DNA of 40,245 nt from Verrucomicrobiota bacterium (GTDB taxonomy: Bacteria > Verrucomicrobiota > Verrucomicrobiia > Limisphaerales > CAIQOK01). The stretch is from positions 1 through 40,245 of the forward strand of contig JANYDP010000304.1 in NCBI GenBank assembly GCA_025363535.1. The letters run 5' to 3'. Every line of letters starts with the position of its first letter. The first letter of the stretch is position 1. Under the pieces are notes generated by a model, which worked only from the letters and a program-made list of their open reading frames with translations, made no database searches and was not told the origin of the DNA. Made by a program: the position numbers and the translations under genes. Shown here piece after piece: positions 11,671 to 40,245 of the stretch.

Positions 11671-11787
11671 GGGAAACGTGAAACGTAAAACGTGAAAAAC
11701 CGGATGGGGCTGTCGCTGGTCACACTTCACGTTTCACACTTCACGTTTCACACTTCACGTTTCACGCTCATCCTGTTAGTTTCACGC
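11671..11787. repeat. Heptamer-tandem inverted repeat: GTGAAAC-type x4, spacer, (CACACTTCACGTTT)x3
   Basis: Left arm: GGGAAAC GTGAAAC GTAAAAC GTGAAAA (11671-11698). Right arm: three tandem 14-mers at 11721-11762, each containing the complement GTTTCAC, plus an extra GTTTCACG at 11779-11786. It lies in the divergent gap between ftsK (start 11647) and yihY (start 11794). Confidence 0.85.
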
Positions 11788-11793
11788 CCCGAC

Positions 11794-13596
11794 ATGGCAG
11801 AAAAAAAATCATGGCTTGAGAAGTTGCAGACGTTGCTGGATGAGCGCGGCCTGCGCTCGGAGGCGGATCTCACGAGCCTGAACAAGTTCATCCACTTTTG
11901 GATGTTGCTCGGCAAAAGCTTCGTCCGCAACCGCTGCCCCATCCGTGCCTCGGCGCTTTCCTACACCACGTTGCTGGCGCTGATTCCCATGCTGGCCGTG
12001 GCCATCAGCGTGACCAGCAGCCTGCTCAAGGAACAGGGGGAGGCGGGCATCTACCACTTGGTGGACCGGGTGGTCGCCTATCTGGTGCCGCCAACGAAGG
12101 GTAAAACCAATGGGCCTGCGCCCGCAGTCGTTTTGCAAATGACGACGAACTTCGCCGAATTGAGCGCGCCAACAAATTCGCTGGTCAGCACCAACGAGCC
12201 GCTGCCCGCCGTGACGACGAATGCCGTTCCCGCCAGCGCAGGCGATGACCGGGTCACCTCTGCGCAACGCGAGGTTTCCAAAAAAATCCACGAGTTCATC
12301 ACCAACACCCGCAGCGGCGTGCTGGGCATCACTGGCATGATCGCGCTGGTGGTGGTGGGCATCCGCATGTTGGGCAGCATCGAGTCCACCTTCAACGACA
12401 TCTGGGGGGTGACGCGCGGGCGCAACTGGCTGAGCCGAATTCAAATTTATTGCACCGCCGTCCTGATTGGCCCGCTGCTGCTGACCGGCGCGGCAGCGCT
12501 GGCGGGTGGCCCGCATCTCACGGCAACCCGCCAACTGATCACCAACATGCCGGTCGTGGGCAGTTTTATCTTTCCGATGCTTACCTTGTTGGTGCTGTGG
12601 CTGGCGTTCGCGATTTTTTACCAGCTTGTGCCCAACACCAAGGTGCAGTTCAGCGCGGCGCTCATTGGCGGCATGGTTGCGGGAACGCTCTGGCACTTGA
12701 ACAATGTCTTCGGCTACCTCTTCGCCTCGCGCGTGGCGACTAACAGCACGATTTACGGTGGGCTGTTCATCGTGCCGGTATTCATGGCGGGGCTTTATTT
12801 CACCTGGCTGATTCTATTGTTTGGCGCGCAGGTGGCGTATGCCTTTCAAAATCGCACCTTGTATTTGCAGGAAAAAATCGCCGAGAACGTGAACCAGCGA
12901 GGTCGCGAGTTTGTCGCATTGCGGTTGCTCACCTGCATTGGCCAGCGTTTTCAACGCGGTCTGCCGCCCGCGACGATTCATGAGATGTCCGCCGAGCTGG
13001 CGATTCCCAGCCGGCTGGTGCAGCAAGTTTTGCAGACGCTCATCGCCGCGCATCTCGTCGCGGAAACGCACGGACAGGAACCGGCCTACACGCCCGCGCG
13101 CCCACTCGAAAACATCAATGCCCATCACATTCTCCAGGCCATGCGCGCCACGAACGGTCAGGAGCTGGTCACCCGCGACGAGCCGATCCGCGAGGAGGTC
13201 TATGGCGAGTTTGCGCGTATCCAGGAAGCCGAGCGCCAGGCCGCCGCGTCCGTCACGATGCTCGCGCTGGTCAGCCGCGCGCAGGCCCGGCTGGAACTGG
13301 TCGCCCCGGTGGCGGCTGGGGACGAAATTAAAATGAAGCCCGCGTTGGTGCCGAGCATTGAACCCGCCGCCGCATCCGCCGAGGAAGAAATTAAATCGCC
13401 TGATCTTTCTGCCGGACCTCCTCCTGACCTGACCCCGAAAAAATTTGAACAGGGGAATGTTCGGCCGGAAAATGAAGACCGCATGGCGGTGGCTGAAATA
13501 AAATCCGCAGGATCGTCACAGGCTGAAACTAAAACTGCCGCCTCACCTTCCGCGATTGCAACTCCGACTGAAGAAGAAAGGGATTTTCCATTATGA
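11794..13596 (+). CDS. YihY/BrkB-family membrane protein with a long C-terminal extension (wHTH-like segment plus low-complexity tail)
   Basis: The ATG at 11794 gives MAEKKSWLEKL.... YihY signature IRASALSYTTLLALIPMLAV and six TM segments. Downstream is REFVALRLLTCIGQRF...ATIHEMSAELAIPSRLVQQVLQTLIAAHLV, which looks like a winged helix. The ORF-track start at 11692 reads through the repeat element and is rejected. Confidence 0.8.
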   Translation: MAEKKSWLEKLQTLLDERGLRSEADLTSLNKFIHFWMLLGKSFVRNRCPIRASALSYTTLLALIPMLAVAISVTSSLLKEQGEAGIYHLVDRVVAYLVPPTKGKTNGPAPAVVLQMTTNFAELSAPTNSLVSTNEPLPAVTTNAVPASAGDDRVTSAQREVSKKIHEFITNTRSGVLGITGMIALVVVGIRMLGSIESTFNDIWGVTRGRNWLSRIQIYCTAVLIGPLLLTGAAALAGGPHLTATRQLITNMPVVGSFIFPMLTLLVLWLAFAIFYQLVPNTKVQFSAALIGGMVAGTLWHLNNVFGYLFASRVATNSTIYGGLFIVPVFMAGLYFTWLILLFGAQVAYAFQNRTLYLQEKIAENVNQRGREFVALRLLTCIGQRFQRGLPPATIHEMSAELAIPSRLVQQVLQTLIAAHLVAETHGQEPAYTPARPLENINAHHILQAMRATNGQELVTRDEPIREEVYGEFARIQEAERQAAASVTMLALVSRAQARLELVAPVAAGDEIKMKPALVPSIEPAAASAEEEIKSPDLSAGPPPDLTPKKFEQGNVRPENEDRMAVAEIKSAGSSQAETKTAASPSAIATPTEEERDFPL

Positions 13597-13620: not shown

Positions 13621-15276
13621 TCAGACGATGCGGTCGGATGATTGCCCGGACAACTCCTTGATCTCCTCGGCGAGCTTGCTCGCCTGCCTTTCGAGTTCCG
13701 CGCTTTCCTTTTCAAGCAGTTTCTTTCGCTCCGCTGCCAGTTCATCCAACAGGCCCGGCTTCTTCTCGCTCAGTTGGCAAAGCTCGTAATCAGGGCTTTC
13801 TTTCAAGCGGTTCAGCGATTCGATGACCGCGATGATTTCCAGTTGCAACGTCTCATGCAGCCGACGCAACTGCGCCAGTTCCGCCGCGTCGCTGAAATCC
13901 AGCGTCGCCCAGCCCTGGCGCAGGATGAATCCGTGCGGGTCTTCCGCGATGTCCCGCAACGTCTGGATGTCGCCCGCGTCCTTTGCCCGGTTGATGGCGG
14001 CGGTCAGCTTGTGATATGTCTCCAGCTTGTCCGGTTGGTCGGCAAAACGGTCGGGGTGATACAACTTCACCAGCTTCTTCCACAGCCGCGACAGTTCCGC
14101 CTCCTCCTCGACGGTGAGTTGTTTCTTATCCGCCACCGCTGCGGCCGTCTCCTCGTAATCCTTGTCTGTTTGCGCTTTGGCCTGCTCGTAATTCGCTTCC
14201 GCCTGTTTTGCCTCCTCCTCGCCGCCGCGCACCAGCGAATCCAGAAACTTCCGCCGGTAATCCACGATAAGCCGCAGCCGGTCGCGCTGCTGATAATGCT
14301 CGCGCAACTGTCGGAACAACACCGACTGCATGACATCCACGCGCGATTTCTCTTTTGTGAAATTAACTTCCAACTCCGCCAGTCGCGCCCGCGCACCCGC
14401 CACCAACTGCCGCATTTGCTCCAACTCCGGGTTGACGTAAATCACCAGCCCGACGACGCCCGCTTGCGCGGCGGCAACGTCTTTGATTTCGCCGTCAATT
14501 CCCGGCATGGCAAACAGGGTTGCGTCAGATTGCGCACTGGAAATTTCCAGTTGCCGCAGATACCAGCGACCCATTTTCGCGCTGCGAGCATTGGAAGAAT
14601 TTGCCAGCCAGTCCAGCCAGCCGCGCAAGTCCGCGTCCTTGCGGGCCTCTTGAATCAACCTCCCCTTGTGTTTCCCGAATGCGATGCGCGACGGAAACCA
14701 TTCTTCCGCCGCGAACGCGACCAGCTTTTCCCACGTATCCAGACCGCGATGTTCGGCGATGGGGCGAAGCACCTGCGCCATCAAGTCCGCGACCGTTTGC
14801 ACGTCGCCAAGCGCCGTGTGTGCACCGCGTTCGGGCAGGCGATAATACTGCTGCAACGTTTGCAGCTTGCAGTTGCCGGCGGGCACGGGATCGAGCAGCC
14901 GCTGCGCCAGACGCAGGGCGCAAAACCCGCGACTGGCAATCGAGCCGATGCCCAGCCGCTTCCACTCCGGCTGCAACACTTGATCCAGATCGTATTCCAG
15001 ATTGAACGCAACGAGCGGCAGGCCGCCTGCGTATTCGGCAAACTCCCGATAGACCTGCTGCGCCAGCTCGCCGTCGCGCTCCAAAATCTCGCGGGTGTAA
15101 CCATGAACTCGCGTTGCCTCGGCGGGAATATCCGCGTTTTGATTGAGCAACTTGCGAAACGGTTTGCCGTCCGGCTGCCAGCCGCGCATCCGTTGTGCGG
15201 CCAGTTCAACGACAAAGACGGGGACGGCGAAGCCAGTCGTTTCGGTATCCAAGAGAACCCATTGTTCACTGTTCAT
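13621..15276 (-). CDS. DEDDh 3'-5' exonuclease (DnaQ-like) fused to a coiled-coil region and a J-domain (HPD)
   Basis: Exo motifs LLDTETTG (about 15241-15258), AFNLEYDL and HTALGDV. A small FGKHKGRLIQEA...GWLDWL module follows the nuclease. Coiled coil, then the J-domain LWKKLVKLYHPDRFADQPDKLETYHKLTAAINRAKD, with HPD codons at 14050-14058. Start chosen at ATG 15276 (AGGAA 5 nt upstream); ATGs at 15294 and 15297 are alternatives. Confidence 0.85.
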   Translation of the reverse strand: MNSEQWVLLDTETTGFAVPVFVVELAAQRMRGWQPDGKPFRKLLNQNADIPAEATRVHGYTREILERDGELAQQVYREFAEYAGGLPLVAFNLEYDLDQVLQPEWKRLGIGSIASRGFCALRLAQRLLDPVPAGNCKLQTLQQYYRLPERGAHTALGDVQTVADLMAQVLRPIAEHRGLDTWEKLVAFAAEEWFPSRIAFGKHKGRLIQEARKDADLRGWLDWLANSSNARSAKMGRWYLRQLEISSAQSDATLFAMPGIDGEIKDVAAAQAGVVGLVIYVNPELEQMRQLVAGARARLAELEVNFTKEKSRVDVMQSVLFRQLREHYQQRDRLRLIVDYRRKFLDSLVRGGEEEAKQAEANYEQAKAQTDKDYEETAAAVADKKQLTVEEEAELSRLWKKLVKLYHPDRFADQPDKLETYHKLTAAINRAKDAGDIQTLRDIAEDPHGFILRQGWATLDFSDAAELAQLRRLHETLQLEIIAVIESLNRLKESPDYELCQLSEKKPGLLDELAAERKKLLEKESAELERQASKLAEEIKELSGQSSDRIV

Positions 15277-15802
15277 GTTTCCTGTCTTCAACATCATTCA
15301 GCAACCGCTCGATTTCGTCTTTCGACAAGCCCCCTCTTATGTCCTTGAAGCGAACAGCATGTTGCCTACAAGTCTGGCTATCTTGGGCGGAAACGTGGAG
15401 AACCCCGTTAGCGTCAATATCAAAAATCACTCGTATCTGGCGTTCTGACTCTGCCGTCAGTGAAATATCATCGATAATGAACTTGCCGAACAACGGATTC
15501 ATGGCGGCCAGAATGTTTTCACCTTGAACCACAGTGAATTCGATGCTCGTTCCATTACCGATGAAATTAGGAAGGATCAGCGATGTTCGTGCAGGGATTA
15601 TTGTGTTGCGCTTAAACACTGTAATGGCTCGGCCGTCACTGCCCTCGATGCTTAAAGTCAGCGGTGTAGCATCGCATTTTTGCCGAACCATCTCGATTGT
15701 TTCCCTCACCATGTCGGACAGAATACGCTTTGCGCCCGGCTGAGATTTTTCAATCGCGCTTGGCGGTCTCGGCACTAACGCAAAATTGTTCTTCTCATTC
15801 AT
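15266..15802 (-). CDS. Stand-alone Hsp70 (DnaK-type) substrate-binding domain protein with no nucleotide-binding domain
   Basis: 178 aa. PLTLSIEGSDGRAITVFKRNTIIPARTS...FTVVQGENILAAMNPLFGKFIIDDISLTAESERQIRVIFDIDANGVLHVSAQD...GLSKDEIERLLNDVE aligns by eye with E. coli DnaK ~393-520 ([71 protein letters not shown]...GLNEDEIQKMV). Only ~45 non-NBD residues precede it. Confidence 0.85.
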   Translation of the reverse strand: MNEKNNFALVPRPPSAIEKSQPGAKRILSDMVRETIEMVRQKCDATPLTLSIEGSDGRAITVFKRNTIIPARTSLILPNFIGNGTSIEFTVVQGENILAAMNPLFGKFIIDDISLTAESERQIRVIFDIDANGVLHVSAQDSQTCRQHAVRFKDIRGGLSKDEIERLLNDVEDRKHEQ

Positions 15803-16616
15803 GGTTATCTCTAGAAATTATCGCGAGGCTTGGATTTGTTGGAATGTAGGCTGAGAGGCTTGGAGATATCCTTCTGATGCACTCAAGTGCGGCATTGATT
15901 CGAACACCAATCAGTGTTTGTTTATTTGAGATGAATTCGATGGCGACACCCACCAGCCTTGGTGTCCACATCTGATGCCCACCCAAATCGGTCTGAGCAA
16001 AGCTCCAGACAGGGCCACCGCTCATCCCTTGCGGATTGGGTGCTGCTACGATTCTTCCATTCTCGTCGGTAACCTGCTTCAAGTCGAATTTGACCGCGAT
16101 ATGGGTTTGCGGCGTAATCCCCAAAAAGGTGTAATCGGTTTTGGAAATTGATACGGACCTGAAATTGTAAAGTCGCGGCTCCAAAATTCCACCTAGCTTT
16201 TCTGAGTGAACTTTTCTCCAAGGGTATCCAAAAAACTCATACGGTCTTCCTGACAGATCGGAATTGTTTGCGTCTGCATACTGAATTGGAAGTGGTGCGT
16301 GAACTTCTTCCATGAAAGACACTGTGTCATCGGTGAGTGCGATAACCGAAGTGTCATTTCGATCATCTCGCCTCGATCCTTGCACCAGCCGCGTTGCCTT
16401 TCCATGCCCTCGAAGTTTCCGGAACCCTTTTTGATTACCCACGAGCAAAGTTCCATTTGCCGCAAAATCGGTGATGTGCGCCGCAGTGATTAAGAACCTA
16501 GTTTGTTCCACTATGACCAACGTGCCGGTTCCAATCAGTTCCGGCTTTCCGCGTTGCAGATCCCAAAGAGGACAGATGCATTGAGCAATTGGTGGTATTC
16601 TATTTTCACACTCCAA
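15795..16616 (-). CDS. Cytoplasmic trypsin-like (chymotrypsin-fold) serine protease
   Basis: 273 aa. His in FLITAAHI (His codon 16476-16478), Asp in DTSVIAL, Ser in GMSGGPVW (Ser codon 16020-16022). No signal peptide or TM segment. TTG start at 16616, overlapping the Doc gene by 11 nt. Confidence 0.75.
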   Translation of the reverse strand: MECENRIPPIAQCICPLWDLQRGKPELIGTGTLVIVEQTRFLITAAHITDFAANGTLLVGNQKGFRKLRGHGKATRLVQGSRRDDRNDTSVIALTDDTVSFMEEVHAPLPIQYADANNSDLSGRPYEFFGYPWRKVHSEKLGGILEPRLYNFRSVSISKTDYTFLGITPQTHIAVKFDLKQVTDENGRIVAAPNPQGMSGGPVWSFAQTDLGGHQMWTPRLVGVAIEFISNKQTLIGVRINAALECIRRISPSLSAYIPTNPSLAIISRDNHE

Positions 16617-17244
16617 ATTGCTTCCGCAACTTCTCTGGAATCATGGAAAGCAGAGTCTGCTCAACTTGCGGAATATGGTCGTCGAACCGGTGCTGATTGA
16701 TGTTCAACTCTTCGCACCTGGTCACAAGAACCGCTTTAATTTTGCTGGCCACGAAATCCAGAATGATGGCCTTTGTCTCGTCAGGTAGTGGCGCGGTTCC
16801 TCCGACCAGAAGCGATTTGATTTCGTCGGCGATTGTTTGGGGTTCGACATGGAAGAAATTCTCTGTGCCGCTCAAGTAGAGCATCTCTGCAAAGACTGGT
16901 TTTGATATCCGCCCTTCGGTGAGAGCGATCATGCAGTTGAACAGCTCCTCCTCCTCAAATTGCACTTCGATCTGATTTTGTTTCAGAAAGGCCAACGCCG
17001 CCATCAGAGCGGTGCGCTTGTTGCCGTCGGTGAACGGATGATTTTTTGCAATGTGAAAGGCGTACGCCGCCGCCACATCGAAAACGTCGGCGGCGGGCAG
17101 GTAAAGCCAAGTGTTTTGCGGCTGGGCCAGTGCAGATTCCAAAAGTCCGTGGTCCAGCACGGCAGGGTCACCGCCGTATAGTTGGATTTGTTGATCGTGG
17201 TAGGCGAGAACGGCTTCCTCGCGGAGAAAAAGCAGGTCGCTCAC
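16606..17244 (-). CDS. doc: Doc (death-on-curing) Fic-family toxin with an ~85-aa C-terminal extension
   Basis: 212 aa, GTG start. REEAVLAYHDQQIQLYGG..., and the Doc active-site motif HPFTDGNKRT at 17011-17040. Canonical Doc is ~125 aa. Residues ~128-212 (TENFFHVEPQTIADEIKSLL...LSMIPEKLRKQFGV) are extra and unrecognised. Confidence 0.88.
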   Translation of the reverse strand: MSDLLFLREEAVLAYHDQQIQLYGGDPAVLDHGLLESALAQPQNTWLYLPAADVFDVAAAYAFHIAKNHPFTDGNKRTALMAALAFLKQNQIEVQFEEEELFNCMIALTEGRISKPVFAEMLYLSGTENFFHVEPQTIADEIKSLLVGGTAPLPDETKAIILDFVASKIKAVLVTRCEELNINQHRFDDHIPQVEQTLLSMIPEKLRKQFGV

Positions 17245-17249
17245 TGCGG

Positions 17250-17420
17250 TTACTGGGCCAAGCGACGGAACACGCCACTATACTTTTTCTCTGCCCAATC
17301 GCCAGCCGCTTTGGACTGTTCGAGACCAGCGTAGCGAATACTCCGCGACTTGCCCGGAGACTTGGGGGAAGCTTTCGAGGCGATTTTATCAGGCGTTTCC
17401 TTTGTCGCGGTAGCTTTCAT
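17250..17420 (-). CDS. 56-aa small protein in the antitoxin position upstream of doc (not Phd-like by eye)
   Basis: My own codon-by-codon translation: MKATATKETPDKIASKASPKSPGKSRSIRYAGLEQSKAAGDWAEKKYSGVFRRLAQ*. It ends 5 nt before the doc GTG. It is below the 60-aa cutoff of the ORF track. The N-terminus is Lys/Ser/Pro-rich and the C-terminal part looks helical. Confidence 0.55.
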   Translation of the reverse strand: MKATATKETPDKIASKASPKSPGKSRSIRYAGLEQSKAAGDWAEKKYSGVFRRLAQ

Positions 17421-17429
17421 TTCAGTGGC

Positions 17430-17458
17430 AGTTTACCTCAACATAAAGAAGGTGTAAA
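17430..17458 (-). promoter_or_regulatory. Candidate sigma70-type promoter TTTACA-17 nt-TAAACT for the five-gene operon
   Basis: On the minus strand the -35 TTTACA is at 17458-17453 and the -10 TAAACT at 17435-17430, with a 17-nt spacer. The predicted start site is only a few nt before the ATG at 17420, giving a near-leaderless mRNA. Confidence 0.35.
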
Positions 17459-17545
17459 GCTGGTTAAAGGCCGGTGCTCCTGCTGGTTTCAAAGGCCGCA
17501 GGCCGAATGAAGCGCCCCTTTCAAAAATTTTAGGAGCTTACGTGA

Positions 17546-17782
17546 GGAGGCGTGACGCATTACTACGTGGCGAACATGCCCGGTGCGTATGCGCGCACGG
17601 CGACCCAGGTATTGACGAACGTGACGCAGCGTTACATCGAACTGCTGGCCGACAACGGACTGGCCGAAGCCTGCCGCCTGCAACCCGCGCAGGTCAGCGG
17701 CCTCAACGTGATGGGCGGCAAAGTTACGCACAAGGCCGTCGCCGAGGCGCACGGGATGAAGTGGGAAGCGCCGAAGCTCTGA
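17546..17782 (+). pseudogene. ald: 3' remnant (last ~76 codons) of alanine dehydrogenase
   Basis: THYYVANMPGAYARTATQVLTNVTQRYIELLADNGLAEACRLQPAQVSGLNVMGGKVTHKAVAEAHGMKWEAPKL matches the AlaDH C-terminus (xVANMPGAVPRTSTxALTNxTLPY...GLN...G.VT..AVA...G). An in-frame TGA at 17543-17545 lies immediately upstream. The ~300 N-terminal codons are absent. Confidence 0.8.
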
Positions 17783-17824
17783 AAACTTTTACTAGGAACA
17801 CGGGACAGGAATGTCTCGTGAACC

Positions 17825-17890
17825 CGCAGGCAAAAATGCCTGCGCTACGTCAAAACAAAAAAGCGGCGGAAATTTCTTTCCGCCGCTTTT
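17825..17890. terminator. Two hairpins between the ald remnant and the ilvB 3' end; the second is a bidirectional intrinsic terminator
   Basis: CGCAGGCA-aaaa-TGCCTGCG (17825-17844). AAAAGCGGCGGAAA-tttc-TTTCCGCCGCTTTT (17859-17890) has a 14-bp stem flanked by an A-tract and a T-tract, 17 nt from the ilvB stop at 17907. Confidence 0.8.
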
Positions 17891-21796: not shown

Positions 21797-23392
21797 TCAA
21801 CCGATCCGGAACCAGCAGGTTTTCAAATAGGCCGGCTCGGCGCGGGACACCGGAAAGTCAGGCGGCTGCGGAACGTAATGGCGCTGGAGAATTTTCCGGC
21901 GCGCGGCCCGGGCGGCATCTTCAACGCTGGCCAGAAAACTTTCCGGCTCCCAGTCCGCCGCATTGGTGGAGGCGAGCAGGACTCCGCCGGATTTGAGCAG
22001 CGGCAGCGTGGCGGTGACAAGCTTTCCAAAATCTTTCTCCACGCGGAACGCACCGTGTTCCTTCGACTGTGAGAACGTGGGCGGATCCAGGACGATGGCA
22101 TCGAACGCGCGCGATTTTTTGGCGAGGCGGCGCAGCCAGTCGAACGCGTCACCGAAAATAAAATCGTGCGCGGCGGGATCAAGTCCGTTCAAGGCAAAAT
22201 TCCGGCGACCCCATTCGAGATATTTTTTCGAGAGATCGAGGCTCGTGACGCGCGCCCCGGCTTTCGCGGCGCAGACGGAGAAGCCACAGGTGTAGGCGAA
22301 GGTGTTGAGTACTTCGAGTTTCGAATTCTGAAGTGGAAAGTCCGCCGCGATGTGGCCGGTGAGGAAGCGCCGCCGGTTGTCGTGCTGATCGAGGAACAAG
22401 CCGACGGAGTAGCCTTCCTGAAAACTCAGTTCGAAGCGGATGCTGTTTTCGTGAATTTCAAACCGCTCAGGTGCGGTTTCGCCGAGAATGTGTTGCGGTG
22501 AAGTTTCACCGGGCGTGGTGCGGCGCACCTGCCGGTTGAGAATCTTGTGGTAAGCGCCGCGCGCGGAAACCTGTTGAGCCAGACGAGCCAGTTCCGCTTG
22601 CTGGGGTTGGGTTAATTCACTTTCGCTTTGGGACAGCAACCAGTCGCCGAGGCGCTCAACAAACCAGCCGGGCCAGCCGTCGCTGGCGCCGTGGATGAGG
22701 CGGCCGACGTTCGTGGCCGGCGCGTCAATCACCGCGGCACGCAGGGCCAGGCGCGCGTCGGCGGCAAAATCGGCGGGCGCGCGGAAGGTCACGAGCTTGT
22801 CGCTGGCGGGATGGCGCACGGTGATTTCCGCCGCGTGCAGGCAGACGCGCGGGAACGGTGAACCGCCGTAAAGCGTGTCGCCAAGAATCGGGAAACCGTG
22901 GTCGGCGGCGTGGACGCGGATTTGGTGGGTGCGGCCGGTGAGCGGTTCGGCTTCGACAAAGGTGGAATTCGGAATTTTGGATTTGAGATTGGCGTTGCGG
23001 AAAATCGTCTCCGCTGCTTCGCCGGTCGCGCCGCTGATGTAGCGTTCGCCGAGGCGGGTGATTTTGGAATTGGCGGTGAACTCGGTTTGCTTCAGTCCGT
23101 GCTCCGTCAGCAGCAGATATTTTTTGCGGACGTCGCGGCGGGTGAACTGTTCGGTGAGGGAGCGGTTGGCCTGCGGAGTTTTTCCAAAGACAAGGACGCC
23201 GCTCGTCTCTTTGTCGAGGCGGTGGATGATGGCGAGCTTTGCCCAGCGCGCTTCGCGGTGTCGCAGCCAGTCATACAAACCTTCCCCGGCAAACGGCGCG
23301 GGGGCGTGCGTGTTCAAGCCGGCGGGCTTGTTGACCACCAGCAGGTGCTCGTCTTCGTGCAGCACGCACGGGGCGGGAGAAATTTGCGACAT
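21797..23392 (-). CDS. Fusion protein: RluA-family pseudouridine synthase (N-terminal) plus RlmI/RlmK-type SAM-dependent rRNA methyltransferase (C-terminal)
   Basis: LLVVNKPAGLNTH, HRLDKETSGVLVFGKT (catalytic Asp) and HQIRVHAA mark the Psi synthase. VLNTFAYTCGFSVCAAKAGA...TSLDLSKKYLEWGRRNFALNGL...DAIVLDPPTFSQSK marks a class-I methyltransferase with the DPPxF motif. Start taken at ATG 23392; the ORF track extends to 23455. Confidence 0.85.
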   Translation of the reverse strand: MSQISPAPCVLHEDEHLLVVNKPAGLNTHAPAPFAGEGLYDWLRHREARWAKLAIIHRLDKETSGVLVFGKTPQANRSLTEQFTRRDVRKKYLLLTEHGLKQTEFTANSKITRLGERYISGATGEAAETIFRNANLKSKIPNSTFVEAEPLTGRTHQIRVHAADHGFPILGDTLYGGSPFPRVCLHAAEITVRHPASDKLVTFRAPADFAADARLALRAAVIDAPATNVGRLIHGASDGWPGWFVERLGDWLLSQSESELTQPQQAELARLAQQVSARGAYHKILNRQVRRTTPGETSPQHILGETAPERFEIHENSIRFELSFQEGYSVGLFLDQHDNRRRFLTGHIAADFPLQNSKLEVLNTFAYTCGFSVCAAKAGARVTSLDLSKKYLEWGRRNFALNGLDPAAHDFIFGDAFDWLRRLAKKSRAFDAIVLDPPTFSQSKEHGAFRVEKDFGKLVTATLPLLKSGGVLLASTNAADWEPESFLASVEDAARAARRKILQRHYVPQPPDFPVSRAEPAYLKTCWFRIG

Positions 23393-23439
23393 GGCCGATA
23401 TGCTATTGATTCGTCCGGTTGATGGAACGTGGAAGCCGG

Positions 23440-24264
23440 TCAGAAAAATTTCCAATCACCTTTCCACACAACCCAGACGCCGAGCAGAAAATTGGTGATC
23501 GCATGAGCGGTCATCGCGTCACCCAAGCGGTTTTTGCGGATCACCAGCCAGTGGTACGCGAAACCGCAGAGAATGCCGGCGAGCCATTGCTGATGCTGAA
23601 CGCCGAAGATGATCGCGATGACAAGAAAGGACGTGGGGTGAAAGCGGTTTAATGGCATTTCCAGAAAATTGGTCCGCACGAAATAGCGGTAGAGGAACGA
23701 ACGGTAAAAAACTTCTTCAAGCGGCGGAACGATGACGGTCATTCCAAAAATACGTACAATAGCAAGCAGCCATGCGGTCGAGGAATTCTCACCGAACTCC
23801 GTGAACGGATTCCAGAACGGGCTGGTCACTTTTGCCTGCGGATAAAAAGGATCGAGAAAAACCCACATGAAAAAAATGCCAATGCCGACGGCTATTGCTT
23901 CCCAACTGATCACCCAGCGCATTTCCGGCACGAACGCGCGCGTTTCCCAGACGAGCCACGCACCGACAAAGATTTTCGCAGAGTAAAGCCAGAAACGGGT
24001 CGATTCACCTAGCAAAGCGGGAGCAGAAAAAATAACAACACCAATGATGAGCGCATTCAAATCAATTGCCCATTTCAATTCTGGAACAAACGAGCGCATT
24101 TCCCAAACAAAGAAGGCACCTGCAAAAACTTTCGCGAAATAAACCCAAAGTTTCGAGGTGTGGGCATCTAGACCCGCTGCGGTTGTAATAAGAAGAAAAA
24201 CGACAAGCGGCGCGACGCGGGCGTAGATGGGCGAGGTTTTGGATTTCTCCCTGAAATAGGTCAT
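23440..24264 (-). CDS. CPBP-family (CAAX-type) intramembrane glutamic protease with a duplicated N-terminal TM module
   Basis: Motifs PPLEEVFYRSFLYRYF (EExxxR), FGVQHQQW (FxxxH) and HAITNFLLG (HxxxN). The start is uncertain: ATG 24264 (MTYFREKSK) or 24333, the latter overlapping ptsH by 14 nt. Confidence 0.8.
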   Translation of the reverse strand: MTYFREKSKTSPIYARVAPLVVFLLITTAAGLDAHTSKLWVYFAKVFAGAFFVWEMRSFVPELKWAIDLNALIIGVVIFSAPALLGESTRFWLYSAKIFVGAWLVWETRAFVPEMRWVISWEAIAVGIGIFFMWVFLDPFYPQAKVTSPFWNPFTEFGENSSTAWLLAIVRIFGMTVIVPPLEEVFYRSFLYRYFVRTNFLEMPLNRFHPTSFLVIAIIFGVQHQQWLAGILCGFAYHWLVIRKNRLGDAMTAHAITNFLLGVWVVWKGDWKFF

Positions 24265-24319
24265 CGCGCAAATGTTCCGAAACTTCGGGTAAACGCCAAG
24301 GAAATTATTTTGCCGGCGT

Positions 24320-24619
24320 TTACTCCTCGTCAAACTTGCGTTTGATGAGGGATTCGATTTCAGCCAGCGCGCTGGAAGCGTCCGGGCCGATGGCCGAGAT
24401 GGTCAGTTTGCTGCCCGGGCCGGCGGCGAGCATCATCAAACCCATGATGCTTTTGCCGTTCACTTTTTCACCGTCCTTCTCGACGAAGACATCGCACTGA
24501 AAACGGTTGGCGGTTTTGACGAAGAGCGCGGCGGGCCGGGCGTGAATGCCCAGTTTGTTCGAGACGTGAAAGTCCCGGACAAGGCTGGCATCGTCGGCTG
24601 GCAGTTTTTTGGCGCTCAT
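24320..24619 (-). CDS. ptsH: Phosphocarrier protein HPr
   Basis: 99 aa. NKLGIHARPAALFV (His-15 site) and VNGKSIMGLMMLAAG (Ser-46 site). Confidence 0.92.
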   Translation of the reverse strand: MSAKKLPADDASLVRDFHVSNKLGIHARPAALFVKTANRFQCDVFVEKDGEKVNGKSIMGLMMLAAGPGSKLTISAIGPDASSALAEIESLIKRKFDEE

Positions 24620-29743: not shown

Positions 29744-30982
29744 ATGCAGAGTGAAGAATTGAAGGAAAATGGTGACGAGCCGCCGGGCGCGCGGCTTTCT
29801 GATTCGCTAAAGCAATTCCGTTCCGCCGGGCGCGGCTTTTGGAGCAATGTTTCCGATGCCGACTGGAATGACTGGCGCTGGCAGTTGAAGCATCGCATCA
29901 CCACGCTGGAACAGTTGCACCGGCTCATGCCCACGCTCACCCCCGAGGAACATGCGGGCACGCAGCTCGCCAACCACAAGCTGGCGCTGGCCATCACGCC
30001 GTATTTTTTCAACCTGATAGATCCGGCGGACGAAAACTGCCCGATCCGCTGGCAGGTGATTCCGCGCATCGAGGAGACGCACACGGCGGCCTGGGAGATG
30101 AGCGATCCGTGCGGTGAGGATTCGCATTCGCCGGTGCCAGGACTCGTGCATCGCTATCCTGACCGCGTGCTGTTTCTGGTGACAGACCGGTGCGCATCCT
30201 ATTGCCGTTATTGCACGCGGTCGCGGCTGGTGAGCAACGCGACGGGCTACGATTTTCATCCCGAGTACGACAAGCAGATCGCCTACATCGCGGCGCATCC
30301 GGAGATTCGCGACGTGCTGTTGAGCGGCGGTGATCCGCTGTTGTTGAGCGACGAGAAGCTGGAGAATTTATTAAGCCGGCTGCGGGCGATTCCGCATGTG
30401 GAGTTTCTTCGCCTCGGTACGCGCATTCCGGTTTTTCTGCCGCAACGGATCACGCCGGAACTGTGCGCGATGTTGAAACAATTTCATCCGCTTTTTATCA
30501 GCATCCACTCGAACCATCCGCGTGAACTGACTACGGAAGTTCTCGACGCGCTGGGTCGTCTCGCCGATGCGGGCATCCCGCTGGGCAACCAGTCGGTGCT
30601 GCTGCGCCATGTGAACGACGACGCGGAAGTGATGAAGACGCATTTGCAGAAGCTGCTCCGCTGCCGGGTGAAGCCGTATTATCTTTATCAGTGCGACTTG
30701 ATTTCCGGTTCGGCGCACTTGCGGGCGAGTGTGCGCAAGGGGCTGGAAATCATGGAACAATTGCGCGGTCACACCACGGGTTACGCGGTGCCGACCTATG
30801 TGATTGACGCGCCCAACGGCGGCGGCAAGGTGCCCATCAGTCCGGAATACGTGTTGAGCCGCAACGCCGACCGGGTGGTCATCCGCAACTACGAGGGAAA
30901 GATTTTCGAATACCCGGAAGCTGCCGACGGCACTCCACTGGTGGCAGCGCCGAGGGAGATTGAGGAGCCGGCGTTGGTTTAA
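29744..30982 (+). CDS. KamA-family radical SAM enzyme (lysine 2,3-aminomutase-like)
   Basis: 412 aa. WNDWRWQLKHRI, VTDRCASYCRYCTRS (CxxxCxxC cluster), DVLLSGGDPL, and PYYLYQCDLISGSAHLR, typical of KamA/AblA. Confidence 0.88.
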   Translation: MQSEELKENGDEPPGARLSDSLKQFRSAGRGFWSNVSDADWNDWRWQLKHRITTLEQLHRLMPTLTPEEHAGTQLANHKLALAITPYFFNLIDPADENCPIRWQVIPRIEETHTAAWEMSDPCGEDSHSPVPGLVHRYPDRVLFLVTDRCASYCRYCTRSRLVSNATGYDFHPEYDKQIAYIAAHPEIRDVLLSGGDPLLLSDEKLENLLSRLRAIPHVEFLRLGTRIPVFLPQRITPELCAMLKQFHPLFISIHSNHPRELTTEVLDALGRLADAGIPLGNQSVLLRHVNDDAEVMKTHLQKLLRCRVKPYYLYQCDLISGSAHLRASVRKGLEIMEQLRGHTTGYAVPTYVIDAPNGGGKVPISPEYVLSRNADRVVIRNYEGKIFEYPEAADGTPLVAAPREIEEPALV

Positions 30983-31338
30983 GGTTCGATTCAAACGGGG
31001 AACTCGCCCGCGCCAACTGGAAAGCCGGATGCTTTTTGTAATTGTTGGCGCAAGCCGATTCTCTATTCTGGCTTCGTTATTAAACAGTTTTGTCAGTGGA
31101 TAGAATGGCCGTATAAGCTGGGATTTTTTGTTTGCACCCAAGAGCTTACCCATTAACATTGATCCTAACTGTCTGAACCGAGTGACATCATGTAGCGCGA
31201 GTGATGGGTGAACTGTCGGTTGATCAAAAATTAAACTAAGCGATACGAATGAATGTGCTCGATATCTGGGAAGGCTTCCGAGTATCAGCGGATTTTCCGT
31301 AACAAACCCTAAACATAAAGCATAAAGAAAGTTCCAAA

Positions 31339-31785
31339 ATGAAATTCATTAAAATTAATGCCGGTGTTCTTGGTTGCCTGCTGGCCGTCGCCCTCAGCGG
31401 CTGTGACAAAAATTCCTCCAGCCCGGCCGTCGAGGATGCCAAGAAATCTGCGGAAAGCGCCACCACCGCAGCCCAGCAAGGCGTGGATAAAGCCGTCACA
31501 GAAGCGAAGCAAGCGGGTGAGAAAGTGGTCGCCGAAACGAAAGAGGCCGGCCAGAAGGCGGTCGCCACGGCGACTGAACAGGTCAAGGCCGCCGGCGGTG
31601 ACGCGACGGCCGTGATCGCCAAGGTGCAAAGCCTGGTCGCGGAAAAGAAATATCAGGAAGCCCTCACCTCGCTCGGCAGCTTGAAGGACGTGAAGCTTTC
31701 CGACACCCAGCAAAAGGTCGTGGATGGACTCAAAGAGCAGATCACCAAGTTGATGAGCAGCGGTGCCGGACTGCTGGGCAAATAA
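31339..31785 (+). CDS. Small lipoprotein, Ala/Lys/Glu-rich and helical
   Basis: MKFIKINAGVLGCLLAVALSGC lipobox. Low-complexity repeats of the type A(E/Q)xAxxKAV. Confidence 0.7.
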   Translation: MKFIKINAGVLGCLLAVALSGCDKNSSSPAVEDAKKSAESATTAAQQGVDKAVTEAKQAGEKVVAETKEAGQKAVATATEQVKAAGGDATAVIAKVQSLVAEKKYQEALTSLGSLKDVKLSDTQQKVVDGLKEQITKLMSSGAGLLGK

Positions 31786-31837
31786 CCAAATCCCCTCAAT
31801 AACAATAGCAAACACACCTACACACACCTACACACAC

Positions 31838-32602
31838 ATGACCATCAAAGGAACAGTAGTATTGACCATGACGGCATTGACCGCCTTGACTGCGGCGACT
31901 TCCGCGAACGCCCAAGCCGCCACACCGGCACCGCCCGACACCAGTTGGAAAAGCAGCGCCGCTGCTGGATTGACCCTCACCCGGGGCAACAGCGATACCT
32001 TGCTGGCCACCCTCGGCGCGACCACCGGCAAGAAATGGGACGCGAATGAAGTCAGCCTCGGCATTGACGGCAGCTACGGCAAATCCAAAATCGCCGGCAA
32101 CAATCAGACCACTGCCGGATCTGCGCACGCTTTTATGCAATACAACCGGCTCTTCAATGAGCGCCTCTACGGCTACCTCCGCCTGGAAGGGTTGCATGAC
32201 GCGGTGGCCAAAATTAATTACCGGATCACCCTCTCACCGGGTCTTGGCTACTACTTCATCAAGCAGAAAAAAACCGACCTCAGCGCGGAATTCGGTCCAG
32301 GCTTTGTGTTTGAGAAACTGGGCGGCATAAACAAAAGCTTCGTCACGCTGCGGTTGGGCGAGACGTTTCACCATGAGCTGAGCGACCGCGCCCGTATCTG
32401 GGAACACGCGGACATCATGCCGCAGGTGGACAAGTTCAGCAATTACATCGTCACTGCCGAAGCCGGCATCGAGGCGGACATCACCGCAGACAAGCGGCTG
32501 TCGCTCCGTGCAGTTGTGCAGGATACGTTCAACAGCATTCCCGCATTGGGACAGAAAAAGAACGACTTCACGCTCATCACTGGCATTGCTTACAAGTTCT
32601 AA
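31838..32602 (+). CDS. DUF481-family outer-membrane beta-barrel protein (YdiY-like)
   Basis: The ATG at 31838 gives MTIKGTVVLTMTALTALTAATSANAQA, a signal peptide. GLTLTRGNSDT..., alternating beta-strand pattern, C-terminal ...ITGIAYKF. Confidence 0.8.
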   Translation: MTIKGTVVLTMTALTALTAATSANAQAATPAPPDTSWKSSAAAGLTLTRGNSDTLLATLGATTGKKWDANEVSLGIDGSYGKSKIAGNNQTTAGSAHAFMQYNRLFNERLYGYLRLEGLHDAVAKINYRITLSPGLGYYFIKQKKTDLSAEFGPGFVFEKLGGINKSFVTLRLGETFHHELSDRARIWEHADIMPQVDKFSNYIVTAEAGIEADITADKRLSLRAVVQDTFNSIPALGQKKNDFTLITGIAYKF

Positions 32603-38355: not shown

Positions 38356-39393
38356 ATGACAATGGGAATGCACATAAAATCATCCAAGAGCGGCATGGCG
38401 TTGATCATGGTCATGGTTGCCATTTTTGCCCTGTCGGTTTTGGTGGGGGCTTTTGCGTATGCGATGAAAGTGGAAACCAAACTGGGCCAGACCGCCAACA
38501 ACGGGGAAAAATTAATCTGGCTGGGGCGTTCCGGAGTGGAACAAGCGAAGGCGATTTTGGCGCAGGGTAATTGCCGGTACGAGGCGTTGAATCAAAAGTG
38601 GGCCGGGGGGACGGGATCAGAGTGTGAAACCAACGGTGCTTTTACGGATTTGCCAATGGAGAATGTCCGGCTCGGCGACGGAACTTTTTCCATCAAAATC
38701 ACCGACCTGGAGCGGAAGATAAACATCAATAATGCGCCGGAAACGTTGCTGAGGAATGCGATTGATTCGCTTGGGCTGAGTCAGGGCGAGGCGGGGATGG
38801 TTCAAGATGGAATTCTGGATTGGATGGATGCGAATCCAAATTCAAATGTTAAACATCCCAACGGGGCGAAGACCGATTATTACCAAAGCCTAGAGCCGCC
38901 GTACATCGCGAAGAATGGGCCGATTGATGACATCTCAGAGCTGTTGATGATTCGCGGCGTCACCCAGGATATTTACTGGGGCCCGGCCTCTACGAATCAT
39001 TCAGCAGCCTATTTTCAACAGCCGAGCCGATCTGGCAGAGTTGGACAGCAACCGGTCTATTCAGCGGGATTGGAAGATATTTTTACGACAATGGGCGGGT
39101 CGGTGAATGTGAACACGGCGACGAGAGAGGTGCTCTTGGGAATTCCTGGAATAAACGAAACCATCGCCGATCAAATCATTCAAAACCGGAATGAAGCCCC
39201 GTTCGAAAACATCGGCTACGTCATCACCAGCTCCGGTGCGCCGTCCAATATTTCCCAATATTGCGGGGTAAACAGTCAGACATTTGAGGTGCAAGTCAGT
39301 GCGGAAGTGGGCGGAACGCGGAGGACCTTTTACGCAATTGTCGGCCGGGTGCCGCCAAGGAATTTGAAAGTCCTGAGCTTTTATTGGAGGTAA
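38356..39393 (+). CDS. gspK: GspK-like minor pseudopilin
   Basis: SGMALIMVMVAIFALSVLVGAFAY, KININNAPETLL, DDISELLMIRGVTQDIY, VNVNTATREVLLGIPGINETIADQII (helix-hairpin-helix). Start taken at ATG 38356; ATGs at 38362, 38368 and 38395 are alternatives. The ORF-track start at 38113 overlaps gspJ and is rejected. Confidence 0.8.
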   Translation: MTMGMHIKSSKSGMALIMVMVAIFALSVLVGAFAYAMKVETKLGQTANNGEKLIWLGRSGVEQAKAILAQGNCRYEALNQKWAGGTGSECETNGAFTDLPMENVRLGDGTFSIKITDLERKININNAPETLLRNAIDSLGLSQGEAGMVQDGILDWMDANPNSNVKHPNGAKTDYYQSLEPPYIAKNGPIDDISELLMIRGVTQDIYWGPASTNHSAAYFQQPSRSGRVGQQPVYSAGLEDIFTTMGGSVNVNTATREVLLGIPGINETIADQIIQNRNEAPFENIGYVITSSGAPSNISQYCGVNSQTFEVQVSAEVGGTRRTFYAIVGRVPPRNLKVLSFYWR

Positions 39394-39507
39394 ATTTTCG
39401 CGCGGCGGAAATTATTTTTTTGAGGGAAATGCCTACACTTGGTTAAAAGCGTCGTATTTCCTAAGAAATAACTAAAAAAAACCAATCAAAAAAATTTCAA
39501 AAAAGGC

Positions 39508-39535
39508 TTGCGCGGTTTTAAGACTACGATAGTCT
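39508..39535 (+). promoter_or_regulatory. Candidate rRNA promoter TTGCGC-16 nt-TAGTCT preceded by an A-rich UP-like tract
   Basis: The A/T-rich stretch at 39469-39505 (AACTAAAAAAAACCAATCAAAAAAATTTCAAAAAAGG) lies directly upstream of the -35-like TTGCGC (39508-39513). The -10-like TAGTCT is at 39530-39535, about 310 nt before the 16S start. Confidence 0.3.
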
Positions 39536-39711
39536 TACCAAGTTGTTACGACGCAACCCGAACAAAAGGTTGTCGTCAAAGCGGTGAAAAGCTTCACCGC
39601 AGTTCTAACGAAGCTCTGAGAGGCCGAGTGGAAAAGAGAAACCGGCTCTCGGATTTTTTGTCCCCTGAATGGGGAGCTAGTTGGAAAAAGATTTTGGGTT
39701 AAGTGACCCGC

Positions 39712-39724
39712 TGCTCATTGAAAA
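39712..39724 (+). promoter_or_regulatory. boxA-like antitermination element in the rRNA leader
   Basis: TGCTCATTGAAAA matches the consensus TGCTCTTTAACAA at 10 of 13 positions. Leader hairpins lie upstream (GCGGTGAA-aagc-TTCACCGC at about 39582-39601). Confidence 0.35.
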
Positions 39725-39842
39725 TTGAATTGTGCGATAAGTTAGAGCCCCTTCAAGCACAACTAGTTAGTGGTTGTATTTGAAGAGTTTTAAAATTGTA
39801 ATTCGTCCGACTAATCATCGGACAGGAATTAAACTAACGTTT

Positions 39843-40245
<403 letters not shown>

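Follow-up and report, generated by a model that had tools for sequence, protein, structure and literature searches.

In a 40,245-nucleotide (nt) contig of a Verrucomicrobiota bacterium (assembly GCA_025363535.1, contig JANYDP010000304.1; the whole stretch is hereafter called the window), five tightly packed minus-strand genes encode, in transcriptional order, a protein of 56 amino acids (aa), a Doc-type toxin, a serine protease, a protein with the substrate-binding domain (SBD) of Hsp70, and a protein in which a DEDDh exonuclease is followed by a coiled coil and a J-like domain (ExoJ). We find that this cluster is a composite whose last two genes exemplify a recurring two-gene core. This core consists of one or more proteins carrying a 44-aa N-terminal motif together with a coiled-coil/J protein, rather than of Doc and the SBD, and it recurs in several hundred loci on metagenomic contigs and in metagenome-assembled genomes (MAGs), mainly of Verrucomicrobiota. 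The J protein is often but not always fused to the exonuclease, the motif only rarely carries the Hsp70 SBD, and the slot upstream of the motif genes is variable and enriched in toxin-type genes. Judged from sequence, the cluster appears to be one instance of a modular system made up of an effector slot, a tagged adaptor and a J-domain core. Our working hypothesis, to which we assign a probability of roughly one half, is that this is a modular conflict system, probably with an anti-phage or abortive-infection function, in which the J domain would be coupled to the host DnaK. The five genes are:

17250-17420, minus strand: small open reading frame (ORF), 56 aa, ATG start (ORF list)
16606-17244, minus strand: Doc gene, 212 aa, GTG start (ORF list)
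15795-16616, minus strand: serine protease gene, 273 aa, TTG start (ORF list)
15266-15802, minus strand: gene of the SBD protein, 178 aa, ATG start (ORF list)
13621-15276, minus strand: ExoJ gene, 551 aa (ORF list and family alignment)

The small ORF and the Doc gene are separated by a 5-nt gap, and the following genes overlap by 11 nt (Doc/protease, 16606-16616), 8 nt (protease/SBD, 15795-15802) and 11 nt (SBD/ExoJ, 15266-15276), in exact agreement with the coordinates of five packed minus-strand ORFs in an earlier note on this DNA (hereafter, the sequence-only reading). The longest ORF for ExoJ starts at 15297; because the family alignment of 44 homologues begins at MNxxxW in all of them (MNSEQW in the window, 15276), we set the ExoJ start at 15276.

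The sequences used for comparison are all metagenomic contigs or MAGs, some of which are probably mis-binned. A genome scan with ExoJ gave at least 14 loci, and a metagenome scan with a tight alignment of the motif gave 80 loci. In every locus with an intact ExoJ 5' end (L001, L002, L007-L010, L013-L017, L019, L020 and L025), a motif gene lies directly upstream of ExoJ, and the domains that follow the motif in these upstream genes are REC, two copies of REC, Sel1, LRR or SBD, as typed with home-made hidden Markov models (HMMs) seeded from Pfam-typed members. An ExoJ-family gene follows the last motif gene in 59 of the 66 non-redundant loci with at least 400 nt of downstream sequence; 38 of these genes are full-length, 17 are short and 4 are fragmentary. 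The short form of ~270 aa begins at approximately residue 278 of ExoJ and comprises the coiled coil and the J domain without the exonuclease (L019, L056, L068, L085, L086, L088, L089, L097-L099, L102, L103, L107 and L109). Moreover, the motif variants follow the form of the J protein, with 'ALVRKPSSAVEKAAP' found alongside the short J protein and 'ALVPRPPGALEKAEP' alongside full ExoJ. Because the downstream partner is an ExoJ-family gene at this frequency, and because 17 of these genes are short, we conclude that the core is formed by the motif protein(s) and the coiled-coil/J protein.

The physical arrangement of the two genes is similarly tight. One to four motif genes are arranged in tandem per locus; the stop codon of the motif gene overlaps the ExoJ start by 4-14 nt at 24 of 40 junctions, with 8 more at most 30 nt apart, and 15 of 37 junctions between tandem motif genes overlap. 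DNA similarity between the window and the other loci is limited to the ExoJ ORF and the ~100 nt coding for the motif, the flanks of ExoJ are not syntenic and differ from genome to genome, and in 52 of 53 cases the G+C content (GC) of the variable parts of the motif genes is below that of the J gene (0.508 versus 0.590). Two divergent ExoJ genes (52-53% identity; L028 6960-9626 and L029 3646-6578) also have partners with a divergent motif, namely an FGE-sulfatase-domain protein and an LRR protein. One of these pairs is a moron-like insert in a phage-like contig, where it is flanked by capsid and head-tail genes, and the other lies beside a LexA-like repressor and a serine recombinase in a recombinase-bearing element. 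Separately, a 25-aa fragment corresponding to residues 278-302, where the short J form begins, was observed just upstream of a motif gene in L044 (2604-2678), where it sits between two motif genes, and in L048 (297-371); these fragments suggest cassette insertion by recombination at the J-gene start.

The motif and the domain that it carries in the window map as follows:

15671-15802, minus strand: N-terminal 44-aa partner motif of the SBD protein (MNEKNNFALVPRPPSAIEKSQPGAKRILSDMVRETIEMVRQKCD; motif comparison)
15266-15670, minus strand: Hsp70 substrate-binding beta-sandwich (residues 45-160) and one helix (residues 161-177; profile and model)

In genes directly upstream of ExoJ, the consensus of the motif is MNEKxNFALVPRPPxALEKAEPGAKRILSGMVADTLALAKKE. 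An exhaustive profile search found it in 522 representative proteins, nearly always at residue 1. A word-index search with the motif returned only proteins of 44-77 aa, some of them clearly truncations. Among the best 143 of the 522 representatives, which were typed with Pfam, the most frequent domains are Response_reg (REC; 62 proteins), Sel1 (33), LRR_4 (10) and several TPR families, and the rarer ones are Toprim_Crpt (3), HSP70 (2), PTS_EIIA_2 (2) and FGE-sulfatase (1). No family in Pfam or NCBIfam covers the 44-aa motif, and the motif HMM matched adaptor genes only and never ExoJ. AlphaFold2 modelled the motif with low confidence as a disordered segment (residues 1-21) followed by a helix (residues 22-39). 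Within the disordered 'NFALVPRPP', the residues 'ALVPRPP' appear to resemble the DnaK-binding core, YLPRP, of proline-rich antimicrobial peptides.

The 178-aa protein matches the Hsp70 profile over positions 388-520 of 599 only (E 1e-24; ~133 aligned columns). Its AlphaFold2 model has a predicted local distance difference test (pLDDT) score of 75.7, with values >80 over most of residues 45-160, and a Foldseek search with this model returned DnaK substrate-binding domains (best 6e-13; 35-40% identity), complexes of DnaK SBD with proline-rich peptides among them. The actin-like ATPase (nucleotide-binding) domain (NBD) of Hsp70 was not found in the SBD protein, the first 44 residues of which are the partner motif, and neither was the alpha-helical lid, the chain ending after one helix (161-177) at the stop codon. 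Because the match is limited to this part of the profile and the model concurs, we conclude that the protein comprises the β-subdomain of the SBD (SBDβ) without ATPase domain and without lid; the earlier call of an NBD-less Hsp70 substrate-binding domain is thus borne out by both profile and Foldseek. All six homologues of the protein (177-219 aa, 50-60% identity; including P0002-P0005 and P0230) fuse the N-terminal motif directly to 'D[AV]TPLTLSI' and consist of the motif, the SBDβ and a single helix. The SBD genes of the window and of L001 are 72% identical in nucleotide sequence.

The second component of the core, ExoJ, has the following parts:

14782-15258, minus strand: N-terminal DEDDh 3'-5' exonuclease domain (RNase_T profile, conserved motifs)
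15232-15249, 14989-15003 and 14803-14820, minus strand: exonuclease motifs DTETTG, NLEYD and HTALGD, respectively (alignment)
14533-14709, minus strand: ExoX/DUF3820-like region after the exonuclease, with FGKHKGR at 14659-14679 (profiles, annotated relatives)
14131-14430, minus strand: long predicted coiled coil, residues 283-382, where short family members begin (prediction)
13942-14112, minus strand: J-like domain with helix II, HPD at 14050-14058, and helices III and IV (profile, alignment, model)
13621-13941, minus strand: C-terminal helical/coiled-coil tail and stop codon (model)

The exonuclease assignment is supported by the RNase_T match (E 1.7e-13) and by residues D10, E12, D96, H153 and D158, which are invariant or at least 90% conserved in the 44 homologues. 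The region that follows matches phrog_192, and its relatives are annotated as exoX or DUF3820. The HPD tripeptide (H407-P408-D409) is invariant in the 44 homologues and is flanked by modelled helices (389-405 and 415-434). A profile built from the J region only matched ~35 solved J domains, all over helix II-HPD-helix III; the individual scores are weak (DNAJA1 0.0015, Sec63 0.0016 and E. coli DnaJ 0.008, as well as HscB, CbpA and auxilin), and a profile of whole ExoJ searched against PDB gave significant matches to the exonuclease only. No Pfam or NCBIfam family covers the C-terminal half of ExoJ, and its C-terminal 300 residues (coiled coil and J domain) have no relatives in the phage and plasmid collections. 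Of the fusion of an exonuclease to a J domain proposed in the sequence-only reading, the exonuclease stands on its DEDDh motifs, and the J domain is supported by the HPD and the profile matches and weakened by a Pfam DnaJ score below the cut-off. In total, ExoJ gave 1,451 homologous matches, and those with a named source are mostly labelled Verrucomicrobiota; the best 120 of the 1,451 are 75-100% identical and 522-568 aa long. We also observed degraded copies: in L022 (7654-8390), ExoJ is kept only from residue 422 onward, and the ORF directly upstream resembles, by eye, an N-terminal piece of a reverse transcriptase of the group II intron type; further ExoJ remnants are present in L021, L023 and L024.

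In 44 of the 70 assessable non-redundant loci, the motif genes are preceded within 150 nt by an ORF of at least 140 aa in the same orientation, and in 24 of these 44 (24/70 loci) this ORF encodes a toxin-type domain. One SIR2-like family occurs in 13 non-redundant loci beside different adaptor types (Pfam SIR2_2 above cut-off in L037; PADLOC SIR2 1.5e-11 in L049), trypsin-like proteases occur in three loci (the window, L092 and L076) and DUF2971/PDC-S31 in two, and single occurrences comprise a CAP12/Pycsar-type TIR (2.6e-25), RES (2e-19), HEPN_AbiU2 (3.6e-11), DUF4238 (3e-10), SET and Doc (L001). These slot genes mostly encode isolated effector domains that lack a sensor part, and they usually lie within a few nt of the first motif gene, with gaps of 6-19 nt for SIR2 and overlaps for DUF2971 and the protease. 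SBD-type adaptors are preceded by Doc in L001, by Doc and the protease in the window, by a hypothetical 255-aa protein in L002-L005 and by a SIR2-like gene in L025-L027. Inspection and BLAST clustering revealed no motif common to the effector proteins that would tie them to the core.

Three of the five genes in the window lie upstream of the core, and their relevant parts are:

16476-16487, minus strand: H47 of the protease triad (TAAH; alignment)
16344-16358, minus strand: D88 of the protease triad (NDTSV; alignment)
16011-16028, minus strand: S199 of the protease triad (GMSGGP; alignment)
16879-17229, minus strand: Doc domain (Fic-fold), residues 6-122 (profile matches)
17014-17040, minus strand: intact Doc active-site motif HPFTDGNKR, residues 69-77 (sequence)
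16609-16878, minus strand: 90-aa C-terminal extension of Doc, residues 123-212 (no family match)

The protease scores below the gathering score of Pfam Trypsin_2 (E 1e-4, 23.5 versus 27.6), and the product of the upstream gene in L076, another Trypsin_2-type protease, scores above it (28.4 versus 27.6). In an alignment with two relatives, the triad H47/D88/S199 is invariant and the serine lies in a GMSGGP motif. Direct reading of the sequence found no hydrophobic signal stretch at the N-terminus. We assign the protein to the chymotrypsin-fold serine proteases (PA clan), and the serine protease with H/D/S triad and without export signal described previously is retained. The protease matches phrog_36721 (6e-7). 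A homologue with 61% identity in L092, which itself matches the PADLOC LmuA model at 4.9e-7, overlaps by a few nt the LRR-type motif gene directly downstream. The protease is absent from L001, where the Doc and SBD genes are 63 nt apart.

The Doc toxin call is corroborated by the profiles (Pfam Fic, E 6.7e-19; TIGR01550 DOC_P1, 8.4e-19; PHROG 'Doc-like toxin', 2.5e-30) and by alignment with the P1 Doc structure over residues 8-122 (E 1.6e-17), and we assign the protein to the Doc family as a predicted Fic-fold kinase toxin. Its C-terminal extension matches no family, the sole match being a non-significant one to NCBIfam LIC_13076 (E 0.021); Doc is 78% identical between the window and L001 over all 212 aa, and the extension is conserved to the same degree as the Doc domain. 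The 56-aa product of the small ORF has a Lys/Ser/Pro-rich N-terminal half and a helix-like C-terminus that ends in '...WAEKKYSGVFRRLAQ'. It belongs to no family in Pfam, NCBIfam, PADLOC or PHROGs and is not Phd/YefM. A 59-aa ORF at the corresponding position of L001 shares 68% identity with it, small ORF and Doc together having 78% nucleotide identity between the two loci, and the 56-aa protein is a candidate antitoxin or inhibitor of Doc. Synteny is conserved, as the sequence-only reading had anticipated for a genuine system: L001 keeps the order small ORF-Doc-SBD-(LRR)-ExoJ, and L092 keeps the protease homologue by motif genes and ExoJ. Specifically, L001 has small ORF, Doc, SBD gene and an additional LRR-type motif gene before ExoJ; because it lacks the protease and has this extra gene, Doc and the small ORF could be an independent toxin-antitoxin (TA) cassette. 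In our estimate, the chances are about even that the protease is a true part of the system, and they are lower for Doc and the small ORF, which may be such a cassette in a variable array.

A variable array is indeed apparent in related loci: in several Verrucomicrobiota contigs, copies of a 45-80-nt repeat (core GGTGCTCCYGCTGGTTTCAAAGGCCGCAGGC) stand between the TA-type cassettes that precede ExoJ. The repeat and the adjoining gene remnant are located as follows:

17470-17551, strand not given: short repeat at the upstream edge of the Doc cassette (DNA comparison, single copy in the window)
L007 4903-4940 and 5847-5884; L009 4056-4093 and 5639-5676; L013 492-530: repeat copies
L015 1001-1040; L022 4211-4277, 5088-5169 and 6234-6300: repeat copies
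17552-17782, plus strand: truncated alanine dehydrogenase, 76-aa ORF (AlaDh_PNT_C positions 155-214 of 214, E 2.9e-13)

In L007-L009, ordinary TA pairs (HicA, Phd-PIN, ParE and DUF4160/DUF2442) lie upstream of ExoJ, and the same interval of L022 contains three repeat-flanked cassettes (VapC, a membrane protein, and a ParE-like protein with antitoxin). In the window, the repeat lies directly upstream of the promoter-like site of the small ORF and Doc; it has no Rfam match, and its interpretation as an attC or integron cassette boundary was rejected because it folds no better than shuffled sequence (z about +0.5 to -0.8). The adjacent gene remnant noted before is the C-terminal end of an alanine dehydrogenase, of which only the last 60 profile positions are present, and the Doc cassette starts at its cut edge. 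The gene, ald, is intact in L022, which is syntenic with the window at ald, and the remnant appears to mark the edge of an inserted or variable interval. A further element (17799-17851), which follows closely on the ilvB terminator, shares 92% identity with L001 816-868 and is probably a dispersed repeat of the lineage.

Composition agrees with a boundary at ExoJ. Because GC is 0.544 in the small ORF, 0.526 in Doc, 0.478 in the protease gene and 0.479 in the SBD gene, and 0.597 in ExoJ (0.588 for the whole window), the low-GC part ends at the ExoJ start. The proposal that low GC reflects horizontal acquisition may consequently hold for the four upstream genes and not for ExoJ, which has host-like GC and is lineage-wide; only the part upstream of ExoJ looks recently acquired. 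The candidate of a tRNA-linked island was rejected, as there are no tRNA genes within the window. A consensus scan found no terminator-like sites on the minus strand within the five-gene cluster, and a strong ilvB terminator is located at 17890-17859. The promoter candidate of the cluster is:

17430-17458, minus strand: promoter-like site TTTACA-17 nt-TAAACT, 5' of the small ORF (consensus match only)

Because four such sites were found in the scanned region versus 2.1 expected by chance, we consider this site weak evidence. Downstream of the cluster, a YihY/BrkB gene (plus strand, 11692-13596) is convergent with ExoJ and ends at 13596; its product carries extra C-terminal sequence, in which an Rrf2-like match stays below threshold (27.6 bits; the cut-off is 30), as well as a long tail of low complexity. 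Elsewhere in the window, low GC (0.46-0.55) was observed at 23000-24500, which includes a gene for an Rce1-like CAAX protease (23440-24333), and at 30500-32000 and 38500-40000. At the window end (39843-40245, plus strand), the start of a bacterial 16S rRNA gene (model positions 1-383) runs off the edge, and it is the only Rfam family in the window.

How might the parts of such a conflict system act together? We propose that the J domain would link the complex to the host Hsp70 (DnaK), and that the 44-aa motif would either dock the adaptor on the coiled-coil/J protein or itself be a DnaK client segment. The variable domain of the adaptor would then sense the trigger, i.e. a foreign or unfolded protein for Sel1, LRR or SBD and phosphorylation for REC, and the exonuclease, the upstream effector or both would deliver the output. 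In the window, this output would be proteolysis and possibly phosphorylation of EF-Tu by Doc, which the small ORF might otherwise restrain. J domains act on the ATPase domain of Hsp70, and because the SBD protein lacks this domain, a direct chaperone cycle of J domain and SBD inside the module is unlikely. We also considered a more specific scheme, which we put forward tentatively and regard as rather improbable. Here, the 44-aa motif would be a dedicated Hsp70 client tag, the J domain of the module would hand the tagged sensors to the DnaK of the host, and DnaK would be the switch for a new family of abortive-infection systems, so that the flooding or hijacking of DnaK by a phage, or the binding of a foreign protein to the Sel1, LRR or SBD domain, would free the exonuclease and the upstream toxin (SIR2, TIR, RES, HEPN, protease or Doc); the variant in the window, with the tag fused to an orphan Hsp70 SBD, would be a self-binding or decoy form.

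Several observations weigh against a conflict system of this kind. The defence role is read from the neighbouring genes alone, and ExoJ is unusually conserved for a defence gene, with host-like GC, which fits a housekeeping or regulatory role too. Pfam DnaJ matches ExoJ with E 0.0018 and 18.8 bits, below the gathering score of 27.8; the AlphaFold2 model of ExoJ made with 44 close homologues is poor (pLDDT 59) and unusable for a fold search; and the model of the SBD protein does not place the motif confidently in the peptide cleft of the SBD. A co-oriented upstream gene is missing from about a third of the assessable loci, including many of the REC type, and the idea that loci without the exonuclease need a separate effector was rejected, since an upstream gene is present in 12 of 16 versus 25 of 35 (Fisher p = 1). 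Doc and SBD genes are adjacent in only two related loci (the window and L001), the interval upstream of ExoJ doubles as an array of ordinary TA pairs (L007, L009 and L022) and, because Doc and the small ORF adjoin the repeat, adjacency alone could explain the presence of Doc. A possibility that we take seriously while placing it on the unlikely side is that the motif protein and ExoJ form a unit with a non-defence role, such as DnaK-linked regulation or nucleic-acid processing, and that the upstream genes (Doc with its small ORF and the protease, and in other loci SIR2, TIR, VapC and ParE) are independent selfish or defence cassettes collected at a recombination-prone hot-spot, their overlaps in the window being incidental. 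The TA pairs of L007-L009, the three repeat-flanked cassettes in the matching interval of L022, the repeat that abuts the Doc cassette, a complete P1-type Doc with its own small upstream ORF, the missing protease and 63-nt Doc-SBD gap of L001, the high conservation and host-like GC of ExoJ and the loci that lack an upstream partner would all be accounted for. However, the slot genes are mostly single effector domains without their usual sensors or partners and mostly lie a few nt from the motif gene, one SIR2-like subfamily occurs beside different adaptor types in 13 non-redundant loci, and the same protease family is found beside a different adaptor in L092. Moreover, because the ExoJ flanks are not syntenic, ExoJ appears to move with the variable region rather than to anchor a chromosomal site.

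Two further explanations concern the SBD protein itself. Chaperone-dependent TA systems are established, and the sequence-only reading had proposed a system like the toxin-antitoxin-chaperone (TAC) type, in which the SBD would be the dedicated chaperone of the small antitoxin or of the Doc extension and would be recruited by the J-domain protein. In the window as in L001, the SBD gene neighbours Doc and the small ORF, the Doc extension is conserved in both loci, and the SBD fold is intact. Nevertheless, we consider this role unsupported and highly improbable: the place of the SBD is taken by REC, Sel1 or LRR in most loci (SBD in 2 of 143), the SBD-type genes of L002-L005 and L025-L027 have no Doc upstream, and the conserved partner of the SBD is ExoJ, through the N-terminal motif. 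In addition, the SBD protein lacks the ATPase domain on which J domains act, no SecB-like gene is present, and in the window the protease gene lies between the Doc and SBD genes. That the 178-aa ORF is instead a broken fragment of a dnaK-like gene in a degenerating cluster has, in our view, almost no probability. Many database matches of the SBD are indeed DnaK fragments from short or frameshifted contigs, but the ORF is uninterrupted and overlaps the gene on either side, the SBD was modelled with confidence, and the region upstream holds the protease gene and no NBD-coding remnant. Decay is effectively refuted by the six full-length homologues of 177-219 aa, which have the motif-SBD junction and architecture in common.

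Searches for known systems agree with the earlier remark that this combination is not a described one. PADLOC-DB v2 gave partial matches only, with DEDDh/PDC-S48 on the exonuclease half (PDC-S48, 1.7e-16, profile positions 1-233, on the N-terminal 248 residues of ExoJ) and Fic-type candidates on Doc, and nothing on the SBD protein, the protease of the window or the J half. Searches of open-access papers and bioRxiv found no description of a J-domain/exonuclease or Hsp70-SBD/Doc system. Like Phd-Doc of phage P1, the Doc described here aligns over the whole of P1 Doc, has the HxFxD(A/G)NKR motif and is preceded by a small ORF 5 nt upstream; unlike in Phd-Doc, the small ORF is of no known antitoxin family, Doc has a conserved 90-aa extension, and the pair is packed in a five-gene string. 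TAC systems with a SecB-like chaperone resemble the cluster in that a chaperone-derived gene lies by a TA pair and in the idea that chaperone availability gates the toxin, but here the chaperone-derived part is an Hsp70 SBDβ, is associated with a J-domain protein and not with the TA pair, and gives way to REC, Sel1 or LRR in most loci. ExoX/DUF3820 and PDC-S48 proteins correspond to the N-terminal 248 residues of ExoJ, to which ExoJ adds the C-terminal 300 residues with coiled coil and J domain. The SIR2, TIR, protease and HEPN repertoire of the variable slot recalls the effectors of Lamassu (LmuA), Avs, Thoeris and retrons, the cores of which (LmuB/C, STAND NTPase, ThsB and reverse transcriptase, respectively) are absent here.

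The closest parallels in organization come from systems that recruit chaperone parts. Kaur, Burroughs, Iyer and Aravind (2020; PMC7159879) described MoxR-vWA ternary systems, GTPase-centric systems with HSP70/GrpE and DnaJ-fused proteins, and effector-associated domains (EADs). These are similar in that a conserved regulatory core is combined with exchangeable effectors (trypsin-like peptidases, TIR), that neighbouring genes have short domains in common and that Hsp70/DnaJ parts have been recruited. They differ in that MoxR, vWA and GTPase are absent here, the core being exonuclease/coiled coil/J without homology to theirs, and, in contrast to EAD coupling, the 44-aa motif is found on adaptors only and not on the core protein. 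In type III CoCoNuT, the Hsp70-like CnuD retains its NBD as well as its SBD and acts together with McrBC-type GTPases (PMC11090510); an Hsp70-derived domain and extensive coiled coils in a predicted defence operon are common to both, but CoCoNuT has neither a J domain nor an N-terminal tag. Finally, phage sensing by bNACHT25 requires host DnaJ (PMC12169576), a precedent for anti-phage function via the host Hsp70 co-chaperone system; bNACHT25 uses host DnaJ and a STAND NTPase, whereas in the present case the J domain is encoded by the module and there is no NTPase. Because none of these nearest precedents shares the core genes, we rate the conserved module as a putative new kind of system, and it looks like an undescribed chaperone-linked defence module.

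To our knowledge, almost nothing is known of defence biology in Verrucomicrobiota. If our interpretation is correct, the module would represent a large unnamed family, with 522 representative adaptor clusters and >1,400 close ExoJ homologues, in which a J-domain protein is the fixed core and sensors and toxins are swapped as cassettes. It would tie a central protein-folding machine directly to decisions in conflict and immunity and would provide a concrete case of chaperone availability as an infection signal, and the 44-aa tag with its tag-to-J pairing would be small, portable parts. On the conservative reading too, the motif protein and ExoJ are a new conserved two-gene unit, in which the Hsp70-SBD gene is a rare member of a domain-swapping family.

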